This document shows, one piece after another, positions 1-44,307 of a DNA stretch of 44,307 nucleotides (position 1 is its first letter; each line of letters starts with the position of its first letter). A program made the position numbers and the translations under genes. The stretch is from UHGV virus genome UHGV-0213691. One strand, 5' to 3'. Source of the DNA: a virus. The notes beneath the pieces were generated by a model, which saw only the letters and a list, made by a program, of their open reading frames with translations, ran no database searches and had not been told where the DNA came from.

Positions 1-1941
1 ATGTCAAGCGGATGCGGTGACGTTTTAAGCCTGGCGGATTTACAAACCGCCAAGAAACACCAGATTTTCGAAGCCGAGGTTATCACGGGCAAATCCGGAG
101 GAGTAGCCGGTGGCGCTGATATTGATTATGCGGCTAATCCGGTTACTGGTCAGACACAGAAGACGCTCCCGGCGGTGTTACGCGATGCTGGCTTTTCTCC
201 TGTATCTTGGGATTTCTCTACTGGCGGTACGTTAACCGCTAATGACCGCGACAAAGTGGTGTATGACCCTGTAAGCAAGACGTGGTACTCGTACGCTGGC
301 ACTTTACCGGTTACAGTTCCCGCTGGGTTTAATCCGGTAGGTAATGCGGACTGGAAGCCTCAAACTGACCCTGATTTGCGGGAGGAGTTGGCGTCGGAAA
401 ATAGCCAAGTCGTAATTTCCGGGCTAGAGGCCAAGGATATTGTGTCCAGAATAGAGGCTACAAAATACGTGGAGGCCCCTGATGTATATGACGTTTTTAT
501 AACTTATGGTCAGTCGAATAGTGCAGGTGAGGCTATTTTATCTGGCGATACGTCAGGATTTCCTGCCGCTCTGCCGAAATCACTAATGTATGATTTTAGT
601 GATGGAGCAATAAAACCAATTATACAGAATGTGGTTAGTTCTTCTGGTGTTACATCATCTGGGCATGCCTGGGGGGAATTTGAGAATGAATGGTATCGCC
701 TTAGCGGGCGCGGTTCAGTGGAGGTACACTGCGGCCGTGGCGCAACTACCATTGCACAACTGTCAAAAGGGACCACATACTACACGCTGTTGGTAAATGC
801 AGTGGCGTCAGCTAAACAGGCAATGATTGCCGCTGGTTTGCCTGTCGGTAAAACTTACGTGATGTACCACCAGGGCGAGTCGGATATGACAGCAGGGACA
901 ACATACAATGGTTATAGAGACAGCTTTATAGCCTTGATAGATGACCTGAAAACCGATATTAATTTTGATTTATTTTGTAATTTTACCGTTGGTTGCCCGG
1001 GGAACCGAACGGAAGAGTCGTGGGCTGCTATTCAAAATGCGCAAAGGTGGGTTTGTAATAGCAAGACTAATGCCGTGACAGTATTTGACGGTTGCCCTTC
1101 ATTTTTAAAAGGTGATGGTAATATTGGCACTACTGATGGTGGTGTTCACTATACGCAACGCGGTTACAATACAATGGGGCGAGAAGGTGCCAGAGGATTA
1201 TGGTCATTAGTTAAAGGTGGAGCAAGCAATAAAACCTCAACCGATTTATCACAATATTCAAATTTTGCCCCACCATGGACACGGTCAAAATTAGCCGCGG
1301 GCACTATTAAATACAGCAATGATAACGCGAAATGGGTTCTTTTATCTAAGGATACTTCCAGTAACTGGAAAATCTCTAACGTGCATAAACTAGTTGTATC
1401 TTCTGACGGTGACTATTTTTCTGTAGAAATTGCAGACAATGCAGAAAACTGGTTTTATGCTTCCGCTGATGTCGATCGCACCACGGCTATAACAGGTGTA
1501 AGAGCTTACGCGGAACCGCTTACAGTTGGAAATGCATTCTATTTAAAAATCACGGTGTATGCTGACGTTTCTTTCCTTGTCAATACAAGCACAGGTGAGA
1601 TTCGTTATGGGCGACCGCCTTCAACCTCTAATGTTCCATCGTGGATTAGCAATAATATCTCTGTTTCTGTCATTAGTCAGGGGGCCGTTGCGATAACGCA
1701 TGGGCGTACTGCGTCAATGCCGTCTGCTACATACCATGCTTCCAACGATGGAACATTAACTGTAGCAAGTGTATCCGCATATGCCGCGTCTACCACATTG
1801 ACAAGAGTTTATTGTGATAAAGCAAACACTGCAAATCCCTGGGTGGTTGTTACACTTAGAGATTTACTAATTACTCCTGCCAACCTGCAATCTTCCGGCA
1901 TTTCGATTAACTTTAACGGAACTTACGCGCCGTCGTTGTAA
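1..1941 (+). CDS. Tail spike / tail fibre protein with SGNH (GDSL-like) acetylesterase-type domain
   Basis: 646-aa ORF; ATG at pos 1 is preceded across the window junction by AAGAGGA (44295-44301, 6-nt spacer); block-I-like YGQSNSAGEA and a DGGVH block; beta-rich C-terminal half; follows the tail-tip genes. Confidence 0.65.
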   Translation: MSSGCGDVLSLADLQTAKKHQIFEAEVITGKSGGVAGGADIDYAANPVTGQTQKTLPAVLRDAGFSPVSWDFSTGGTLTANDRDKVVYDPVSKTWYSYAGTLPVTVPAGFNPVGNADWKPQTDPDLREELASENSQVVISGLEAKDIVSRIEATKYVEAPDVYDVFITYGQSNSAGEAILSGDTSGFPAALPKSLMYDFSDGAIKPIIQNVVSSSGVTSSGHAWGEFENEWYRLSGRGSVEVHCGRGATTIAQLSKGTTYYTLLVNAVASAKQAMIAAGLPVGKTYVMYHQGESDMTAGTTYNGYRDSFIALIDDLKTDINFDLFCNFTVGCPGNRTEESWAAIQNAQRWVCNSKTNAVTVFDGCPSFLKGDGNIGTTDGGVHYTQRGYNTMGREGARGLWSLVKGGASNKTSTDLSQYSNFAPPWTRSKLAAGTIKYSNDNAKWVLLSKDTSSNWKISNVHKLVVSSDGDYFSVEIADNAENWFYASADVDRTTAITGVRAYAEPLTVGNAFYLKITVYADVSFLVNTSTGEIRYGRPPSTSNVPSWISNNISVSVISQGAVAITHGRTASMPSATYHASNDGTLTVASVSAYAASTTLTRVYCDKANTANPWVVVTLRDLLITPANLQSSGISINFNGTYAPSL

Positions 1942-1943
1942 TG

Positions 1944-1970
1944 AAAAGGCCCCAAACGGGGCCTTTTCTC
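1944..1970. terminator. Bidirectional intrinsic terminator between tail spike and leftward replication operon
   Basis: AAAAGGCCCC-AAAC-GGGGCCTTTT hairpin with A-run upstream and T-run downstream. Confidence 0.7.
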
Positions 1971-2194
1971 TACTCTTCCGATAGCTTCTCCAGTACAAAC
2001 GACAGCGTAGCATTAGCGGCATCTCTTTGCTGCCGTAGTCGTAGAACCTCCTCTTCGAGTTCCTTAACTTTTAAAGCAAGTTCAACTATCTCCGCACTGC
2101 CCACCGTTTCGTACGCGCGAGGGGATATTTTCTTACCACTTTCTAATGTCTTAAAACCCAACGCGGCGATTTCGCTAACACGACTACTCTTCAT
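1970..2194 (-). CDS. Hypothetical protein (74 aa, coiled-coil-like)
   Basis: ATG start overlaps helicase stop (ATGA); GAGG upstream; last gene of leftward operon before terminator. Confidence 0.4.
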   Translation of the reverse strand: MKSSRVSEIAALGFKTLESGKKISPRAYETVGSAEIVELALKVKELEEEVLRLRQQRDAANATLSFVLEKLSEE

Positions 2195-3615
2195 TTTTTA
2201 CCTCGTCTCTTCATGTAATTAAGCAACTCTTCCTGTACCGATTTCTTCTCGTCTGTACGCGCGGCGACAACCTCGTCCAGCGTGTCTTTAGCAACGATGT
2301 GGTACAGGAACACTGGTCGCTCGTGGCCTGCCTGTTTCTGGCGGACCGGGCCTATACGCTCGACAACCTGCAAATAGTGCTCAAGGTTCCAGCCTTGCGA
2401 AATAAACGCCAGATGATGTCCCCCATCCTGTAAATTCAAACCATGCCCGGCTGACGCAGGGTGGACGCACAAGATTTCGATTTCACCACGGTTCCACGCT
2501 TCCATCTGCTTATTACCCTTAGCCCCTTTGGCAAACGCCTGCGCCTGCGGGAATCGCTTAAGGATGCGCTCCAGTTCATGCTTGAACTGATAGGCCACCA
2601 GCAACGGTGCGCCCTGTAACTCCTCAACAATCGACTCCAGCGCGTCCAGTTTCGTATCGTGCACTTTCTCCCAGTCTTTCGTTGCTTCGCCGTCCGGCCC
2701 CGATACATACACGGCACCGGACGCAATCTGTAGGCACTTCGACGTCTTCGCCGCCGCATTAGCCGCTTCAACTTCCCCGCTCTCCAGTTCCGCGAATAAC
2801 TTCTCCTCCATATCGATGTACGCCTGACGTGCTTTCTTCGGCAGGTCGATTTCAACCGGCACAATAATCGGCGCTTCACACCCGAACCACTCGGCGGCGT
2901 CAATCGTAAGACTGATGTCCTTCATTTTCTGATGAATCTCATTATCCGCACCTGGTCGTGCGTGATACTCCCGCGCCATAGCTGACTTACCTTTCTGTAT
3001 CGAGTTAAACCAGCGGTCGGTGAATGCCGTGTAGGAAGAACCGAGTCGCTCGCCCGCGTCGATAAACCAGTTCTGGCCCCACAAGTCTTTGAGGCCGTTT
3101 GGCGACGGTGTACCTGTCAGGTTGATGAAACGCTTAACTTTACCGAACGCCACTTTACTAAGCGCCTTTGCTCTCTTGCTACCGCCTGAACGGCTGCGGA
3201 ACGATTTAAGCTTCGTGCTCTCATCAGCAACGATAACCGTAAAAGGCCAGTCGTCTTTGCCGTAGTAGTCAATCAACCACTCGATAACTTCGTAGTTCGT
3301 ACACACCACGTTAGCGTCAGACTCCAGCGCCGCGATGCGGCGTTTCTCTGAACCTGTTGCATCGACGACACGCAGACATGGGAACCGCCATTTCTCTTGT
3401 TCAGCGGGCCATGTACCGGATGCAACGCGCAGCGGGGCCAGGATTAACACTCGGTCGTCGTCATTAAGTTGCCCATTACGGAACAGTCGGTTTAAGGCCC
3501 ACAGTACGCTGCCAGTCTTCCCGGCGCCCATGCTTGCCCATATGTTGCAGCGATGGTGTCGCAACATGAACGAGGTCATGAGTTTCTGGTACTCGCGTCT
3601 TTGAAACTTACTCAT
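2191..3615 (-). CDS. SNF2/DEAD-like family helicase
   Basis: 474 aa; Walker A GAGKTG, DEAH-like VADESTK, ILAPLRVASGTW and LTGTPSPNGLKDLWGQ motifs. Confidence 0.85.
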   Translation of the reverse strand: MSKFQRREYQKLMTSFMLRHHRCNIWASMGAGKTGSVLWALNRLFRNGQLNDDDRVLILAPLRVASGTWPAEQEKWRFPCLRVVDATGSEKRRIAALESDANVVCTNYEVIEWLIDYYGKDDWPFTVIVADESTKLKSFRSRSGGSKRAKALSKVAFGKVKRFINLTGTPSPNGLKDLWGQNWFIDAGERLGSSYTAFTDRWFNSIQKGKSAMAREYHARPGADNEIHQKMKDISLTIDAAEWFGCEAPIIVPVEIDLPKKARQAYIDMEEKLFAELESGEVEAANAAAKTSKCLQIASGAVYVSGPDGEATKDWEKVHDTKLDALESIVEELQGAPLLVAYQFKHELERILKRFPQAQAFAKGAKGNKQMEAWNRGEIEILCVHPASAGHGLNLQDGGHHLAFISQGWNLEHYLQVVERIGPVRQKQAGHERPVFLYHIVAKDTLDEVVAARTDEKKSVQEELLNYMKRRGKK

Positions 3616-4537
3616 TTACCGCCCCCATGAACGCCTTTATAAATTCAGCGGCTACTTGCGGGACGATGGCATTGCCATAACCGCGCAATCGTCCCACTCT
3701 GGCGGGTATCCCATTAGCCAGCGGGAATGTGCCGGGTTCAACTGGCCGGAACTTTCCATCACGGCATCCGAGCCAGTCAGCATCTGACCAGAAGCCGTGA
3801 TGCGAATTGGTTGTGTTATTTTCAGACCCTGCTCCGTCGAGTAGTCCAGCCTGTCGAATGTCCTGTCCTTCCCGTCCTTGCGAATACCTGTCTTTCCGCT
3901 CCCCATGTAGTCGTTCGCTGTCGGTGTAGGCCAAGCCGCCAACGCGGCAGCCCATCCCAGTTTGTTCGGTTTCGTCCTGCCGTCTGTGCTGCGCATGTTC
4001 GCGTCGTTTGTTATCAGTGATACCGCCGGTGTGGGCCAGTCTGTGCGCGCCGAAGAAAAGTCTGTCGCGTTTGTGTGGCGCGCCGACGCTACAAGCTGGG
4101 AGTACCGCAAACCCGACGGCGTAGCCTTCTCCCTCCAGGTGAGTTTGTAAGTCGCACATCCACGATTTTGCAATTGCTGGCGCAACCTGTTCACCAAAGA
4201 GGACTGGAGGGCAGCACTCGCTGATGAGGTCAAGGAATACGGGCGCGAGGTGTCTTGGGTCGAACTGTCCGAGTTGCTTTCCTGCCGCGCTAAACGGTTG
4301 GCAAGGCGGGCTTCCCGTCCAGAGAGGCGTATCTTCCGAAACTCCCGCAAGTCTGAGCGCGAGAGGCCAGCCGCCGATACCAGCGAAAAAATGACACTGG
4401 GTGAACCCGTCGAGGTCTTCAGGTTTAACTTCGGTAATGCTTCTTTCATCTACAATTCCAAAAGGTATGTGACCCTGCTTTATTAATTCACGCAGCCACG
4501 CGGCTGCGCCTTTATCCCACTCATTGTAATAGTTCAT
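3608..4537 (-). CDS. DNA (cytosine-5)-methyltransferase-like protein, compact
   Basis: 309 aa; motif I FAGIGG, motif IV PPCQPFS (PCQ Cys), FGEQV (ENV-like), HKRDRLFF (RxR), GNAIVPQV; only about 20 aa between motifs I and IV. Confidence 0.6.
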   Translation of the reverse strand: MNYYNEWDKGAAAWLRELIKQGHIPFGIVDERSITEVKPEDLDGFTQCHFFAGIGGWPLALRLAGVSEDTPLWTGSPPCQPFSAAGKQLGQFDPRHLAPVFLDLISECCPPVLFGEQVAPAIAKSWMCDLQTHLEGEGYAVGFAVLPACSVGAPHKRDRLFFGAHRLAHTGGITDNKRREHAQHRRQDETEQTGMGCRVGGLAYTDSERLHGERKDRYSQGREGQDIRQAGLLDGAGSENNTTNSHHGFWSDADWLGCRDGKFRPVEPGTFPLANGIPARVGRLRGYGNAIVPQVAAEFIKAFMGAVNE

Positions 4538-13965: not shown

Positions 13966-14023
13966 GTTGTATTTCCTTCAGCAAGTAATTTGGCCTCGGC
14001 GTTCACCGCGTCGGGGCTTTCTT

Positions 14024-14257
14024 TTATTCCAGGTCTTCTAAAGTGGCTGTCATTCCGCGAACTTCGGCAACGGCACTATATTTCCCACCAACATTTTTCA
14101 CGGCACCAGATTTAACCAGTACCCTCAATGACCCTTCAATAATGGCAGAACTATAGTACTTAAAATAACTGCGGCGCAAGTCGATAACGCTGCACGACCC
14201 TTTTTTACGTGTTAACGAAACGACCGCCGTAAATACGCGTGACTGGAACTCGGTCAT
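14024..14257 (-). CDS. Hypothetical protein (77 aa)
   Basis: ATG start overlaps upstream gene stop (ATGA). Confidence 0.45.
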   Translation of the reverse strand: MTEFQSRVFTAVVSLTRKKGSCSVIDLRRSYFKYYSSAIIEGSLRVLVKSGAVKNVGGKYSAVAEVRGMTATLEDLE

Positions 14258-14424
14258 TTCACGTTCTCCTTAATCCACGCTTCCACCTTCTCCGGGTCAA
14301 ACGTACCTGGCTGACGGCGACCCATAATGCGAATACAGCAATCCGGGAACTTCCCGCTCTTTAACCAGTTATTCAGCGTGCGACGAGTAACTCCTATACG
14401 CTCCGCTACCTCATTCTGTGTCAT
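14254..14424 (-). CDS. AlpA/excisionase-like HTH DNA-binding protein
   Basis: 56 aa from ATG 14424 with GAGGG RBS (track start 14457 is TTG); MTQNEVAERIGVTRRTLNNWLKSGKFP. Confidence 0.55.
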   Translation of the reverse strand: MTQNEVAERIGVTRRTLNNWLKSGKFPDCCIRIMGRRQPGTFDPEKVEAWIKENVK

Positions 14425-14456
14425 TCTCAAACCCTCATTATCAGTTAACGAAACCA

Positions 14457-14485
14457 AGTATACATTGCGAATAATGGGAAATCAA
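14457..14485 (-). promoter_or_regulatory. Candidate leftward promoter (TTGATT-17-TATACT)
   Basis: Hexamers with 17-bp spacer read on minus strand, just upstream of ATG 14424. Confidence 0.3.
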
Positions 14486-14575
14486 ACATAATCGCACCTA
14501 TTGACATTAAGAAAATCTTCGTTTAAGGTGCTTCTATATCTTAGTTACTTTGATTCCTGTTCACCTTGTAAGAAT

Positions 14576-14607
14576 GTTTAACCCGTGCGACAAGCAAAGG
14601 GTTAAAC
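14576..14607. other. Stem-loop (9-bp stem GTTTAACCC/GGGTTAAAC, 14-nt loop) in noncoding region
   Basis: Perfect inverted repeat; no flanking ORF. Confidence 0.4.
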
Positions 14608-14762
14608 ACAGGCTTACTGAACATGAGAATTATCGTAACTTTCCTTCCTAAGTATCTCCGGTTGCCATGGGCAAGCTCTATTCTCATCGGCAGCATATCT
14701 CTTAAGTATATGATTTTCTTAATGTGCCGTAGATTCGCAACCGTAAAAATGTAACGATTATT

Positions 14763-14790
14763 GGGCAGGCTTAAGGCCTGCCCTTTAGTT
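14763..14790. terminator. Hairpin GGGCAGGC-TTAA-GGCCTGCCC followed by TTTAGTT (terminator-like)
   Basis: Stable hairpin in 450-bp noncoding region; short T tract on plus strand. Confidence 0.4.
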
Positions 14791-14855
14791 ACCAAGTAAT
14801 AAGAATAAAGGCGCAACCTTCCCCAAAGAATCACAACGGCAACGTAACTATTCTC

Positions 14856-14884
14856 TTGCACACCCCAACATAATAGGATACTAT
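14856..14884 (+). promoter_or_regulatory. Rightward promoter (TTGCAC-17-TACTAT) with operator AATAGGATACTATT (14872-14885)
   Basis: 33-bp block TTGCACACCCCAACATAATAGGATACTATTCAC, near-identical to promoters at 27937-27965 and 37164-37192. Confidence 0.6.
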
Positions 14885-14918
14885 TCACTTATCGAAACGA
14901 GACAGAGGAGTGGGTGTT

Positions 14919-15110
14919 ATGTTTAAGAAGGGTCAGTTAGTGAAAACTATATATGGTAGCTTCGGTATTATTGAAAAGAAATCGGCAGTGTACCGAAGTT
15001 CTTATGTTGTTAGCTTACTCAGGGAGCATGGGTTAAGTTCAGCGGCGTATTACCGAGAGTATGAAATGAAACTCATCGGCAACAATTTTAAATTCAAAGG
15101 GGTGAAGTGA
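14919..15110 (+). CDS. Hypothetical protein
   Basis: ATG 14919 with AGAGGAG RBS (track start 14910 is GTG). Confidence 0.45.
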   Translation: MFKKGQLVKTIYGSFGIIEKKSAVYRSSYVVSLLREHGLSSAAYYREYEMKLIGNNFKFKGVK

Positions 15111-41390: not shown

Positions 41391-41752
41391 ACATTAATTC
41401 TTATACAGGGTTGCCGTACGATTTTCGCCGCCGTAATTGCTGGCACCATGTGCGCAATGTCCGCTCAGATGCAGGCCTGACCACGCCCGAGTTTAACGTC
41501 GCATCGCCAACACAGATTAATGATGCATTTGAAGAAGGACATAAAGACACTAAAGGTCTTGTACGTGTAGAAACCCCGCAAAACTTCGACGCCGTTCTTA
41601 TGTCAACCCGGCACAGAAACCGTGTAATCTGGCACGCTGGAGTATACTATGACGGTATGGTGAGCCATTGCGAGCTAGCGAGTCGTCAGGTACGGTTAGA
41701 CCGACTGGAAGACTTGCGCGAAACTTATGCGGAGATAGAATTTTGGCGCTGA
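41387..41752 (+). CDS. Tail protein with NlpC/P60-type Cys-His peptidase signature (gpK-like)
   Basis: 121 aa; NCWHHVRNV Cys-His motif near N-terminus with downstream His. Confidence 0.55.
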   Translation: MNINSYTGLPYDFRRRNCWHHVRNVRSDAGLTTPEFNVASPTQINDAFEEGHKDTKGLVRVETPQNFDAVLMSTRHRNRVIWHAGVYYDGMVSHCELASRQVRLDRLEDLRETYAEIEFWR

Positions 41753-44295
41753 TATTACATTACACCCGTAACGAAGACGGTACTTTTGACCGCAAACGGT
41801 ATAACGTACCCCCGATGGAATACGTCGTTGCTAACATCCCAGACGGGGTACCTGTGCGTATTTACCGTGGCGAGATTGGCGAGGATACGGAAGTAACGGA
41901 AAACTTCGAAGCGCTGAAAGAAGATGACGTTTTCCATATCATCGAGGGTGCTGGCGGCGGTGGTGGTTTTCTGGGTAAACTCCTGGACCCTTTGGGTGTG
42001 CTTAAATTTGTTACCAAGTTGATTTCTCCGTCGCAGAAAACGCCTAAAACGAGTTTAGCGAACCAGCAGGCTGAGTCCCCCAACAACAGCCTGACGGACC
42101 GAAACAATAAACCGCGTCCGTATGAACGGTCGTATGATATTTGCGGCAGGGTCCAGACTATCCCTAATGACCTCATGACTACGTATAAGGTCTTCAACGA
42201 CGCAGGTGTGGTAGTCGAATACGGCTACTATGACGCAGGTCGCGGGTATCTTGATATTAAGGCCGAAGACATCACTGACGGCGATACTAAAGTACAGGAG
42301 ATTACAGGAACTTCTGTCGCAGTGTACGCGCCATTTACATCGCCTAATAACACAAATACGCCTCAGCTTATGGTGGGGGAGCCTATCGGTCAGCATCTAT
42401 ACATAACTATTGCTTCAAACGAGGTAGATGGCGCTGTTTTGAAAGCTCAGAACGACATCAGGGTTAACCCCAGCGATACCGGTGAGATTTCATTGCAAGG
42501 AACAACTGGCGTAGTCCGGGATAACACTGGCGACTCTGCTTTCTCTGAGATTTTATCAGTGGGTGACATAGCTGTTTTTAACCTTATTCTGGTAAAAGAC
42601 GTAGCTAACGTCAGTGGTAGCTATACCGTCACCTACGTAGACGACTTTGAGGTAAGGGTTGCCGTTGGAGGGATGTTGTCAGAATGGCAAAAATTGCCAT
42701 CGGGATTCACTCCTTTAACGCAAGGGACCGAAGCATGGATTTCGCCATCTAACACCTACGATAAGTCGTTAACGGACTGGACTACCTTAAACCGCCTGGA
42801 AGTTGAACGTGTAGTAGCCAACATAGCGGCAGCGAACGGTATGTATAAAGACAACGGCAGTAAATTGCGTACATCTGTAACTGTGGAGCTACAATACCAA
42901 CTCCTCGATGAAACAGGCGTGCCGTACGGAGAAGTTTACGCAAAACAGGCCGCTATATCAGGTCGTTCTGCGGATTACACGGGTGTTACTATTTACGCCG
43001 ACTTGCCAGTGAGGTCTAAAGTTAGAGTGCGCGCCCGCCGCGTTACTAGCCTTGACCTCAGTTTCGAGGGGACCGTAGTAGACGAGGTTTCCTATATCAA
43101 CCTTTACGGTCAGGTCCGCGACACTACGCCGCATTACGGCAATCGTACTACCGTGCACTCTGCACGTAAGCAGACGCCGCGGGCCGCGGAGATTAAGCAG
43201 CCGCAACTACGTATGATTGCCACAGAGATGGTGTACAAATACCTCGGCAACGGCACATTCGACACGGTTATGACGCCGAATACTCAGGCGATTCAGTCCT
43301 TAATCCGTCTTGCCCGCGACCCGGTAGTAGGTAATCTCAACCTAACAACATCCAATATGGACAAGTTGTTAGCGACTCAGACCGAGATAGAAAACTATTT
43401 CGGTAGCGCAGAGGCAGGCCAATTCTGCTACACTTTTGACGATTATAAAATGACCATGCAGGATATTATCAGCACAATAGCTGATGCTATTTTCTGCACC
43501 CCATACCGGAGAGGGGCGGATATTCTTCTGGACTTTGAACGCCCGCGGATTGGCCCCGAGATGGTATTCACCCACCGCAGCAAAACTACCGCTACGGAGA
43601 AGTGGACGCGCACGTTTAACGACGCCCAGGTATACGATAGTCTCAAGTTTTCATACATCGACCCGGATACTAACGTCAAAGAGACAATCAGCATCCCAGC
43701 AGAAGGTGGCGTTAATACCGAAACGTACGACTCTAAAGGTATCCGTAATTATCAACAGGCGTACTGGGCTGCATACCGCCGCTACCAGAAAAACCTGTTG
43801 AAGAAGGTAACAGTATCATTCACGGCGACAGAAGAAGGGATTTTTGCAATGCCAGGGCGCGCCATAAGCGTAGTTAAAGGTTCACGCGTAGCGCCCCAAG
43901 ACGGTTATGTAATCGCCGTTAATGGGCTTACGCTTACTCTTTCTCAGCCAGTTACATTTACCCCTGGTGACGACCACTCACTGATTCTCAAAAAGCGCGA
44001 CGGTGGTGTTCAGAGTGTTGCCGTTGTTCAAGGGAGCCACGACCGCGAGGTGATTATGCTCTCCGCCCCACAGGAGGCAATTTACACGGGGAATAGTGCA
44101 CTAAAAACTGAGTTTTCATTCGGCAACGAAGCAAGGCATAATGCTCAGATGATTCTTGTTTCTACAGTTGACCCCGGGGATGACAGAACGGTTAAAATAA
44201 CCGGTATTAACTACGAAGCAGATTTCTATAAATACGACGGCGTCGCGCCTTTCGGTCGCGGTTTCTCCGACGGATTCAGCAACGGTTTTAGTTAA
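41743..44295 (+). CDS. Tail tip / host-specificity protein (gpI-J-like central fibre)
   Basis: Long ORF ending just before the tail-spike gene; start uncertain: TTG 41743 with GGAGAT RBS preferred, alternatives TTG 41668 or ATG 41815; Gly-run GAGGGGGF. Confidence 0.55.
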   Translation: MALILHYTRNEDGTFDRKRYNVPPMEYVVANIPDGVPVRIYRGEIGEDTEVTENFEALKEDDVFHIIEGAGGGGGFLGKLLDPLGVLKFVTKLISPSQKTPKTSLANQQAESPNNSLTDRNNKPRPYERSYDICGRVQTIPNDLMTTYKVFNDAGVVVEYGYYDAGRGYLDIKAEDITDGDTKVQEITGTSVAVYAPFTSPNNTNTPQLMVGEPIGQHLYITIASNEVDGAVLKAQNDIRVNPSDTGEISLQGTTGVVRDNTGDSAFSEILSVGDIAVFNLILVKDVANVSGSYTVTYVDDFEVRVAVGGMLSEWQKLPSGFTPLTQGTEAWISPSNTYDKSLTDWTTLNRLEVERVVANIAAANGMYKDNGSKLRTSVTVELQYQLLDETGVPYGEVYAKQAAISGRSADYTGVTIYADLPVRSKVRVRARRVTSLDLSFEGTVVDEVSYINLYGQVRDTTPHYGNRTTVHSARKQTPRAAEIKQPQLRMIATEMVYKYLGNGTFDTVMTPNTQAIQSLIRLARDPVVGNLNLTTSNMDKLLATQTEIENYFGSAEAGQFCYTFDDYKMTMQDIISTIADAIFCTPYRRGADILLDFERPRIGPEMVFTHRSKTTATEKWTRTFNDAQVYDSLKFSYIDPDTNVKETISIPAEGGVNTETYDSKGIRNYQQAYWAAYRRYQKNLLKKVTVSFTATEEGIFAMPGRAISVVKGSRVAPQDGYVIAVNGLTLTLSQPVTFTPGDDHSLILKKRDGGVQSVAVVQGSHDREVIMLSAPQEAIYTGNSALKTEFSFGNEARHNAQMILVSTVDPGDDRTVKITGINYEADFYKYDGVAPFGRGFSDGFSNGFS

Positions 44296-44307
44296 AGAGG
44301 ACTCTAT

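Follow-up and report, generated by a model that had tools for sequence, protein, structure and literature searches.

The acetyl-esterase spikes of the Vi phages, such as VIP0040 and Vi01 Tsp2, were described by Pickard et al. 2010 (as reported in PMC3220722 and PMC3448643); Vi phages require O-acetylated Vi, from which their particles remove the acetyl groups (PMC3448643, PMC3220722). The spikes of G7C, Moo19/B2 and ε15 are esterases by experiment. G7C gp63.1 (PDB 4QNL; Prokhorov et al. 2017) deacetylates O-antigen without cleaving the chain, and its Shigella-phage relatives, Moo19 gp82 and B2 gp48/49, depend on O-antigen modifications including O-acetylation. Together with two Klebsiella prophage fibres, Vi phages, G7C and its relatives, and ε15 are the systems for which esterase-spike experiments exist; as an alternative to depolymerases, esterase-only spikes have received little study. 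Kagunaviruses depend on surface glycans through a spike locus that follows a J-like gene (PMC11990801).

We analysed the spike locus of a viral genome (UHGV-0213691), presented as one stretch of 44,307 nucleotides, hereafter the window. The window backbone is 88–92% identical to Kagunaviruses at the nucleotide level and, judged from this similarity, the window is the genome of a virulent Kagunavirus (Guernseyvirinae) siphovirus with an E. coli host. An earlier note on this DNA had read the first gene as a tail spike that starts exactly at position 1, with its ribosome-binding site at the window end. This placement is borne out: the J-like gene lies directly 5' of the spike gene across the circular join, followed by a 12-nt gap with a Shine–Dalgarno-like stretch and then the ATG at position 1 (Table 1). 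An independent metagenomic contig (L009; SRR16894807) is unbroken across the same join, with the J-like gene, 12 nt and the spike gene in that order, and its junction is identical to that of the window, including the Shine–Dalgarno stretch. The tail-spike identity also stands, given the conserved Kagunavirus anchor, the place right after the J-like gene and the absence of any second spike or depolymerase among the other large ORFs of the window.

The spike gene is followed by a hairpin whose 11-bp G+C-rich stem has an A-run on one side and a T-run on the other. Its ΔG of −23.4 kcal/mol (z = −5.4) was equalled by 0 of 200 shuffles. A scan for simple promoter and terminator patterns gave nothing above chance near the spike gene and did not call this hairpin, and no tRNAs or Rfam families were found in the whole window. 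A plus-strand ORF at 1941–2222, which overlaps the end of the spike gene at its stop codon, was not accepted as a gene because it crosses the hairpin and because an antisense 74-aa ORF opposite it matches phrog_5915.

Table 1 Features of the spike locus and its surroundings in the window (amino-acid ranges in brackets are those of the spike)
Feature	Position (nt)	Strand	Basis or remark
Tailspike gene	1..1941	+	ATG start, 646 aa; no second glycan-directed receptor-binding protein detected in the window
Virion anchor and Tail_spike_N-type domain (aa 1–130)	1..390	+	Conserved Kagunavirus part
Neck/linker (aa 131–160)	391..480	+	pLDDT 52–59; left edge of swapped cassette
Horizontally exchanged receptor-binding cassette	396..1941	+	Low G+C, mosaic identities
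SASA-family (PF03629/DUF303) SGNH acetylesterase domain (aa 161–410)	481..1230	+	Pfam, AlphaFold model, Foldseek
Block I YGQSNSAGEA (aa 169–178)	505..534	+	Predicted nucleophile S172 at nt 514–516
Block III-equivalent HQGESD (aa 290–295)	868..885	+	Aligns with HQGESD of solved esterase 1zmb
Block V DGGVH (aa 379–383)	1135..1149	+	Predicted catalytic His383 at nt 1147–1149; candidate acid D379
Pair of β-sandwich domains (aa about 425–646)	1273..1938	+	Proposed glycan-binding/specificity and trimer-forming part
Hairpin, likely bidirectional terminator between convergent genes	1943..1968	no strand	2 nt past spike stop codon
J-like central tail fibre/tail tip gene	41668..44295	+	875 aa; phrog_469 tail protein E 8e-247, phrog_31 central tail fiber J
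Shine–Dalgarno-like AGAGGA	44296..44301	+	6 nt before ATG, across join; read from sequence

The anchor is 83–88% identical at the nucleotide level to Kagunavirus/Jerseyvirus spikes (214 phage records), and this similarity stops at nt 377–395. PHROG tail spike families match the anchor (E = 1e-47), and the spike profile matches the CBA120 TSPs (E ~1e-10). Pfam Tail_spike_N scored 20 bits on the window spike, under its cut-off; in hhalign the spike aligned with residues 87–164 of G7C gp63.1, the Tail_spike_N part, with a probability of 92.7%.

The SGNH-type acetylesterase domain proposed in the earlier note is supported at the level of family and fold. The Pfam SASA profile (PF03629, formerly DUF303) reached 52.6 bits (E = 6.3e-14), where its gathering cut-off is 24.8, with a match over aa 163–397 that spans profile positions 2–221 of 226. 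The AlphaFold2 monomer model reaches a pLDDT of 81.6 overall and exceeds 85 in most of the esterase domain. It shows the SGNH fold, with Foldseek matches to 2apj (TM 0.73, normalised to target; E = 8.5e-10) and 1zmb (E = 7e-10), as well as to 7kmm (XAC1771), 8f9q (SIAE) and TesA-type SGNH enzymes. Profile and fold searches were needed because the protein sequence by itself, searched directly against the PDB, gave a marginal match to 1zmb alone (E = 0.5); a profile search of the PDB found 2apj at E = 1e-7.

Catalytic residues are conserved across 45 homologues, down to ~27% identity. In block I, whose YGQSNSAGEA motif had been pointed out before and is present with its key residues invariant, G170, Q171, S172, N173 and G176 do not vary. 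In the block II region S219, G221 and H222 are invariant. In the block III equivalent neither G292 nor E293 varies, and H290, Q291 and D295 show conservation of 90% or more. The assignment of single residues from these blocks to the oxyanion hole is putative. The DGGVH block, also pointed out before, is present and H383 is invariant, but the candidate acid D379 lies at H−4 in the window clade (D-G-G-V-H), one residue further off than in most homologues (E/D-x-x-H), and by this spacing the motif is a non-canonical block V. D372 is the other aspartate that may complete the triad. Hydrolysis of acetyl esters by the spike is predicted from family, fold and conserved residues. No enzymatic or genetic data were found for homologues above 30% identity.

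The displaced acid, DGGVH in place of ExxH, raises the question of whether the SASA domain has lost some or all of its catalysis and serves only for binding, with adsorption needing glycan binding but not hydrolysis. The esterase activity of ε15 is slow and apparently dispensable, and Pfam found no β-helix or other enzyme domain in the window spike, so that binding alone might be its function. We consider this improbable. The serine, the histidine, the block II glycine and block III are invariant to ~27% identity in homologues that sit on at least four different anchor types, which argues for selection for catalysis, and the title of PDB 9h4u states that SGNH enzymes keep their activity when the triad is altered or 'diluted'. 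Moreover, the esterase domain is far better conserved than the C-terminal part. The spike would assemble as a homotrimer, and the β-sandwich pair is proposed to take part in both glycan specificity and trimerisation.

Only the anchor (aa 1–130) is Kagunavirus-like; the esterase and two-β-sandwich part is a swapped cassette, as its low GC content and mosaic identities indicate. Cassette GC is 44.2% against 51.0% for the genome, and equally low values occurred in only 0.8% of equal-sized windows. Compared with the window, contig L009 is 98–100% identical in the cassette at the nucleotide level but only 76–88% in the anchor. No near-DNA match of the cassette was present in 50,697 phage records. 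Spikes of P22-like E. coli prophages share 87–89% nucleotide identity with it, starting at about nt 482; their esterase domains are 91–98% identical to that of the window (98.4% in the MS 115-1 prophage spike) and their C-terminal domains 81–85%. RefSeq labels these prophage proteins merely 'phage tailspike protein'.

Among 5,426 complete E. coli genomes, an intact cassette was present only in MS 115-1 and EC6622, in each as a P22-like prophage spike and at different integration sites. A third E. coli match, in strain IH5, was discarded, its region being a patchwork of truncated, unrelated genes, and a second SASA spike clade (P0040, ~53% identity) was found in no complete E. coli genome. Both carriers have wzx and a gene for a 155-aa hexapeptide-repeat acetyltransferase between gnd and ugd. 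The acetyltransferase proteins, whose genes lie between wzx and ugd, are WP_000460549.1 and WP_000460401.1. This gnd–ugd O-antigen acetyltransferase gene was present in 10 of the 5,426 genomes, including both cassette carriers (hypergeometric P = 3e-6 for two carrier genomes). The O-antigen cluster of MS 115-1 fits the O155 reference, described as '4.5 kbp, four genes' (PMC4379981), and MS 115-1 is a genuine O155 strain. Both genomes lack kps/neu capsule genes at the pheV locus, and both have colanic acid loci, encoding the colanic acid acetyltransferases WcaB and WcaF, alongside ordinary Wzx/Wzy O-antigen clusters.

We favour an O155-type O-antigen because the two carriers share a rare acetyltransferase, one of them is O155 and neither has kps. 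The likely receptor is O-acetylated O155-type O-antigen, rather than sialic acid or Vi. The phage target may nevertheless be a related but different O-type, because there are only two such genomes and the prophage C-terminal domains are just 81–85% identical to those of the window. No chemical evidence for an O-acetylated O155 O-antigen was found, the accessible part of the source text naming only GalA and GalNAc residues. The genomes that host these prophage spikes lend indirect support to the earlier note's reading of the receptor as an O-acetylated polysaccharide; the identity of the substrate and a dependence of infection on its acetylation are inferred.

Two other classes of glycan were weighed against the same host data. 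An O-acetylated capsule (O-acetylated K1 polysialic acid or a Vi-like polymer) would fit the label 'sialate O-acetylesterase' that homologues carry in sources, but SASA is named for its founding member and not for its substrate range, and solved members include acetylxylan-esterase-like enzymes. Vi phages do act on a capsule with the same domain family, yet the window protein is not detectably close to Vi spikes. The prototype Kagunaviruses K1G and K1H are K1-capsule phages (PMC11990801), and the Klebsiella relatives, at ~53% identity, come from capsule-dominated phage groups; against this, neither cassette-carrying E. coli has kps/neu at pheV, each has colanic acid loci and an ordinary O-antigen cluster, and the rare feature common to them is an O-antigen-linked acetyltransferase. 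We therefore regard a capsule target as unlikely. A ubiquitous substrate, such as colanic acid or ECA, or an O-acetyl shield stripped from many O-types, would give the phage a broad host range; we think this very improbable. In E. coli, O-acetyl groups also occur on colanic acid and ECA, both carriers encode WcaB and WcaF, and the esterase domain stays 66–72% conserved among variants whose C-termini differ strongly. However, a ubiquitous glycan explains neither why the cassette occurs only in rare genomes with one specific O-antigen acetyltransferase nor the serotype-like diversification of the C-terminal domains, and Kagunavirus host ranges are very narrow and bound to O-type (PMC11990801).

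We therefore return to the O-antigen. It is probable, in our judgement, that the single Kagunavirus spike combines an anchor, a SASA deacetylase and a double β-sandwich, with acetylated O155-type O-antigen as its likely substrate. The three modules are an anchor with a Tail_spike_N-type domain (aa 1–130), the esterase (aa ~161–410) and two β-sandwiches (aa ~425–646), with S172 as the predicted nucleophile, H383 as the putative general base and D379 as the candidate acid. By analogy with the Vi phages and G7C gp63.1, the spike would bind an O-acetylated surface polysaccharide and strip its O-acetyl groups, leaving the chain uncut. Deacetylation would open the way of the tail tip to the outer membrane, and the O-acetyl group would thereby be part of the receptor determinant. 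As substrate, the best candidate would be O155-type O-antigen whose acetyl groups are added by the hexapeptide-repeat acetyltransferase from the gene next to wzx.

A more far-reaching proposal is possible but doubtful, and we advance it tentatively: a small siphovirus would penetrate an intact O-antigen layer by a deacetylase alone, the O-acetyl group added through the O155-type gnd–ugd locus would be essential, the β-sandwich would be a new lectin-like module, and the cassette would be mobile. In that reading, catalysis would come from the conserved SASA domain and O-type specificity from the double β-sandwich, which evolves fast. The two domains would move jointly among siphoviruses, P22-like podoviruses and T7-like podoviruses, and the cassette would have spread across Escherichia, Klebsiella, Hafnia, Enterobacter and Pseudomonas.

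With one receptor-binding protein in 44 kb, the phage offers a simple genetic system. If the O155/acetyltransferase prediction is true, a spike module would be linked to an O-antigen modification, which would be useful for host-range prediction and for receptor-binding domain swaps; if it fails, the protein would be an ordinary esterase spike annotated by homology.

Among the relatives of the spike, those in P22-like E. coli prophages (WP_024198346.1 in MS 115-1, WP_248638078.1 in EC6622) have the same cassette as the window, but on an unrelated P22 head-binding N-terminus (Head_binding + SASA) and, unlike the window phage, in temperate podoviruses. The closest relatives from isolated phages are the spikes of the Klebsiella phages KP8, VLCpiA3a/b, vB_Kpl_K48PH164C1 and phi1_146018, with 51–54% amino-acid identity over the whole esterase and β-sandwich cassette; the KP8 spike model was the best structural match to the window spike (E = 2e-74). 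Their anchors (T7-like, KP8-type) and host genus differ from those of the window, and sources call them just 'putative esterase' or 'acetyl xylan esterase'. Cellular SASA/CE6-like acetylesterases (At4g34215, 2APJ; C. acetobutylicum, 1ZMB; XAC1771, 7KMM; SIAE, 8F9Q) share the fold, GQSN and HQGESD with the window domain, yet they are free-standing enzymes with 13–20% identity to it and are not virion proteins.

The acetylesterase spike type is already known from the Vi phages, and by its domain content the window spike would add the SASA type to E. coli phages: no SASA-type esterase spike on an E. coli phage was present in the 50,697 phage records searched. The earlier comparison with Vi-specific phages stands for the layout of Tail_spike_N followed by SASA, but not as a close sequence relationship. 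VIP0040, the spike of Vi II-E1, has the layout of the window spike, with matches to Tail_spike_N (E = 2e-11) and to SASA (E = 1.2e-13 at aa 171–395); both lack a β-helix depolymerase, both phages are siphoviruses, and the Vi I and Vi06 spikes are among the structural matches of the window spike. In a single BLASTP comparison, the alignment with VIP0040 covered only aa 48–176, the N-terminal part and GQSN (E = 8e-5), and tblastn at E 1e-5 returned no Salmonella phage. Unlike the window protein, the spike of Vi II-E1 also has further C-terminal domains and a Peptidase_S74 chaperone, and Vi II-E1 is a Macdonaldcampvirus whereas the window is a Kagunavirus. Vi capsule specificity is unlikely for the window because its nearest relatives are in E. 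coli prophages, and its target is probably an E. coli O-antigen. The G7C, Moo19 and B2 spikes combine Tail_spike_N with an SGNH-superfamily domain, as the window spike does. In G7C gp63.1 this domain is Lipase_GDSL (PF00657), accompanied by G7C_GBD and G7C_C (PF21988, PF22245), none of which is in the window spike, and in hhalign the Tail_spike_N part alone aligns between the two. The G7C group consists of podoviruses with a second spike (gp66), unlike the window phage, and our proposed mechanism takes the function of its spikes as a model.

The motif AGAGGA lies 6 nt ahead of position 1, in the final 12 bases of the window and after the stop codon of a J-like tail gene. In the independent sister metagenomic contig L009 (SRR16894807), whose spike protein is 98-99% identical to the window's, the join of window end and start is unbroken, running from the J-like gene through 12 nt into the spike gene. 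This makes the window a complete, circularly permuted genome; motif and junction together bear out the earlier note's placing of the gene start at position 1 with its ribosome-binding site at the window end. Positions 2000-24000 share 88-92% identity with Kagunavirus phages of E. coli and Shigella; the genus consists of small siphoviruses whose dependence on surface glycans runs through a tailspike, its gene following immediately on the J-like one (PMC11990801). No second spike or depolymerase candidate was found among the other window ORFs of >=400 aa, so the spike is the only glycan-directed receptor-binding protein found in the window.

Features of the window, N-terminus types carrying the spike cassette, and the gene pair common to two cassette-bearing E. 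coli chromosomes
Feature	Location	Strand	Description
Spike gene	1..1941	+	ATG start, 646 aa
Anchor	aa 1-130	+	includes Tail_spike_N-type domain; nt identity to Kagunavirus/Jerseyvirus spikes
Neck	aa 131-160	+	low model confidence
SASA domain (PF03629, formerly DUF303)	aa 163-397	+	Pfam 52.6 bits, gathering score 24.8
11-bp hairpin past spike stop codon	1943-1968		between convergent genes; ΔG -23.4 kcal/mol, z -5.4
74-aa ORF	1970-2194	-	phrog_5915, unknown function, E 1e-18; convergent with spike gene
474-aa gene adjoining methyltransferase	2191-3615	-	L009 counterpart has SNF2-related helicase domain (PF00176)
DNA methyltransferase	3608-4537	-	phrog_363, E 2e-88
Second low-GC patch	14001-15000		43% G+C; small-ORF block, GC skew sign flips; probably a divergent early-gene switch region
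J-like tail gene	41668-44295		875 aa; phrog_469 and phrog_31 matches
Cassette N-terminus type			P22 head-binding domain (PF09008)
Cassette N-terminus type			Tail_spike_N (PF18668)
Cassette N-terminus type			T7 tail-fibre N-terminus (PF03906)
wzx and hexapeptide acetyltransferase pair	L003:30024-31787 (MS 115-1); L006:7115-8878 (EC6622)		between gnd and ugd

Over its first 395 nt the spike gene shares 83-88% identity with over 200 spike genes of Kagunavirus and Jerseyvirus, the similarity ending at nt 377-395. Within the encoded anchor, Tail_spike_N scored 20 bits in Pfam, under the cut-off; hhalign of this region against G7C gp63.1 gave a probability of 92.7%, and the family profile matched the CBA120 TSPs and other spikes in its Tail_spike_N-type part (E about 1e-10). 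Pfam found neither a β-helix nor an intramolecular-chaperone domain in the spike.

The esterase signature that had been read in this ORF is present, with YGQSNSAGEA at aa 169-178 and DGGVH at aa 379-383, and the SASA family match that the earlier note called for scored above the gathering threshold. The proposed esterase fold also emerged from an AlphaFold2 model built from 45 homologues (mean pLDDT 81.6, >85 across most of the esterase domain). Its matches in a Foldseek comparison with the PDB included the SASA-family protein At4g34215 (2apj; E 8.5e-10, TM 0.73 on target), acetylxylan-esterase-like 1zmb, the carbohydrate acetylesterase XAC1771 and mammalian sialic acid esterase, together with the esterase-bearing phage spikes B2 gp48/49, Moo19 gp82 and Pan3. 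Across the 45 homologues, down to ~27% identity, block I residues G170, Q171, S172, N173 and G176 are invariant, as are S219, G221, H222, H383, and G292 and E293 inside HQGESD, a motif that aligned to the identical one of 1zmb. The predicted catalytic blocks have one irregularity, D379-G-G-V-H383, which in the window's clade is one residue wider than the E/D-x-x-H of most homologues. Because Ser, His and the other blocks are strictly conserved over at least four unrelated anchor types, conservation argues for a working enzyme, whose activity is predicted.

At the DNA level, nt 396-1941, the cassette of esterase and β-sandwich C-terminus, had no match in 50,697 phage records; protein-level matches in the same records were confined to ten Klebsiella phages and three Vibrio phages. 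The Klebsiella proteins (KP8, VLCpiA3a/b, K48PH164C1 and others) are 51-54% identical, and the literature terms these spikes only 'acetyl xylan esterase' or 'putative esterase'. A large protein database held 84 clusters with the cassette on varied N-termini (table), from E. coli, E. fergusonii, Enterobacter, Hafnia, Lelliottia and Pseudomonas. Compared domain by domain with the window, P22-like spikes are 94% identical in the esterase and 84% in the C-terminus, on an unrelated N-terminus. The other Kagunavirus-anchored proteins, P0028 and P0029 (from metagenomic contigs of 30.8 and 44.8 kb), are 93-94% identical in the anchor but only 68-70% in the esterase and 38-40% in the C-terminus. For L009, identity reaches 98-100% in the cassette and only 76-88% in the anchor. 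Cassette G+C is 44.2% versus 51.0% for the genome, and only 0.8% of equal-sized stretches are as low. By these comparisons the cassette is mobile and widely exchanged. For Kagunavirus and other lytic genera, a conserved DNA motif is the proposed recombination hotspot at which spikes are exchanged (PMC10408124). Since P0028 and P0029 carry a different cassette allele, uncultured Kagunaviruses have at least two SASA-spike 'serotypes'.

Two of 5,426 complete E. coli genomes, MS 115-1 and EC6622, contain the intact cassette (87-89% nucleotide identity), in each case as the tailspike of a P22-like prophage, at differing sites (next to bioA and at argW). A third match, in IH5 (L005, NZ_CP168949.1, about 5.07-5.09 Mb), was dropped as an evidently scrambled assembly: fliC, wcaK, pduJ, a tailspike fragment and IS pieces lie together there as truncated genes with no relation to one another, a patchwork in a 'complete' RefSeq chromosome that looks like an assembly artefact rather than biology. 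Spikes of temperate phages suit the host entered, and we therefore examined the O-antigen loci of both hosts. MS 115-1 has four genes from galF to gnd, with wzy and wzx called 'O155 family' by PGAP, which fits the published O155 reference cluster of '4.5 kbp, four genes' (PMC4379981). The EC6622 cluster differs and contains rmlBDAC; its proteins are identical to those of the cluster in strain NWU_1, labelled O155:H21. Common to both hosts is a gene pair encoding a wzx flippase (90% amino acid identity) and a 155-aa hexapeptide-repeat acetyltransferase of EpsC/WcaB type (87%). The pair sits outside the usual galF-gnd interval and, because it accompanies two different galF-gnd clusters, wzx-based in-silico O155 calls may be lumping two different O-antigens together.

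Of the 5,426 genomes just 10 have the acetyltransferase gene, and the chance of both cassette-bearing genomes lying among those 10 is 3e-6. In its esterase domain the window spike shares 98.4% identity with the MS 115-1 spike and 90.8% with the EC6622 spike; in the C-terminal domains it shares 81-85% with both. At pheV both hosts lack kps capsule genes, a finding that speaks against a K1-type sialic-acid capsule as the target, despite the family name. From the shared acetyltransferase, the spike identities and the missing kps we propose as receptor an O-acetylated O155-type O-antigen, a proposal drawn from two hosts whose prophage spikes have C-terminal domains that differ from the window's. 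We found no chemical report of O155 O-acetylation, the accessible text naming only GalA and GalNAc residues. Another P22-like prophage (L014:3424-4905; GCA_025278615.1, DAJFYI010000015.1) has a SASA tailspike of the second clade (P0040). After it, on the other strand, come genes for a GT2 glycosyltransferase and a flippase-like protein (Polysacc_synt), which may form a prophage-borne O-antigen modification cassette next to the spike.

Beyond the spike, the slot before the SNF2 helicase varies among relatives, L009 having 45-aa and 171-aa ORFs there, and the similarity of most Kagunaviruses to the window resumes only at nt 2190. The methyltransferase translation shows, by eye, FAGIGG and PPCQPFS, typical of cytosine-5 enzymes; the gene is of possible relevance because the literature reports high sensitivity of Kagunaviruses to restriction-modification systems.

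Spikes with an esterase are already well established, and in Klebsiella prophages receptor-binding proteins with an SGNH domain have proved to be common. The searched phage collection held no SASA-type, esterase-only spike on any E. coli phage. New here are an E. coli Kagunavirus with such a spike, the limits drawn for a widely exchanged esterase and double-β-sandwich cassette, and a specific, testable receptor hypothesis.

Known spikes suggest how this one may act. Vi phages require O-acetyl groups on the Vi capsule, their particles deacetylate Vi, and every Vi phage has a spike with a DUF303 acetyl-esterase domain (PMC3448643; PMC3220722). As described in PMC13123978, G7C gp63.1 removes an O-antigen O-acetyl group and leaves the chain uncut, a deacetylation that is essential for infection. 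Hydrolysis of p-nitrophenyl acetate is known for the spikes of Moo19 and B2, two phages that need O-antigen modifications: a mutant without both glucosylation and GlcNAc O-acetylation was fully resistant (PMC11654681). Galactose is deacetylated by the petal domain of ε15, which loses this activity when its Ser or His is mutated. By analogy, the window spike probably works in three steps: the β-sandwich domains and esterase groove would bind an acetylated O-unit, S172 and H383 would hydrolyse the ester, and cycles of binding and letting go along the deacetylated chains would bring the J-like tip to the membrane.

The suggested parallel with Vi spikes is exact in family and layout, Vi II-E1 VIP0040 having in Pfam Tail_spike_N, then SASA (aa 171-395, E 1.2e-13), then a Peptidase_S74 chaperone; it does not extend to close kinship. 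The Vi I and Vi06 spikes are among the structural matches of the window spike. VIP0040 and the window spike differ in the C-terminus, and the window spike shares a domain family, not close ancestry, with the Vi spikes. G7C gp63.1, the usual functional reference, has a Lipase_GDSL esterase and other C-terminal domains, unlike the window spike, and aligns with it only in Tail_spike_N. On family and alignment, the spike thus belongs to the SASA family and to the tailspike locus of Kagunavirus; by analogy it would work like the G7C type without belonging to it.
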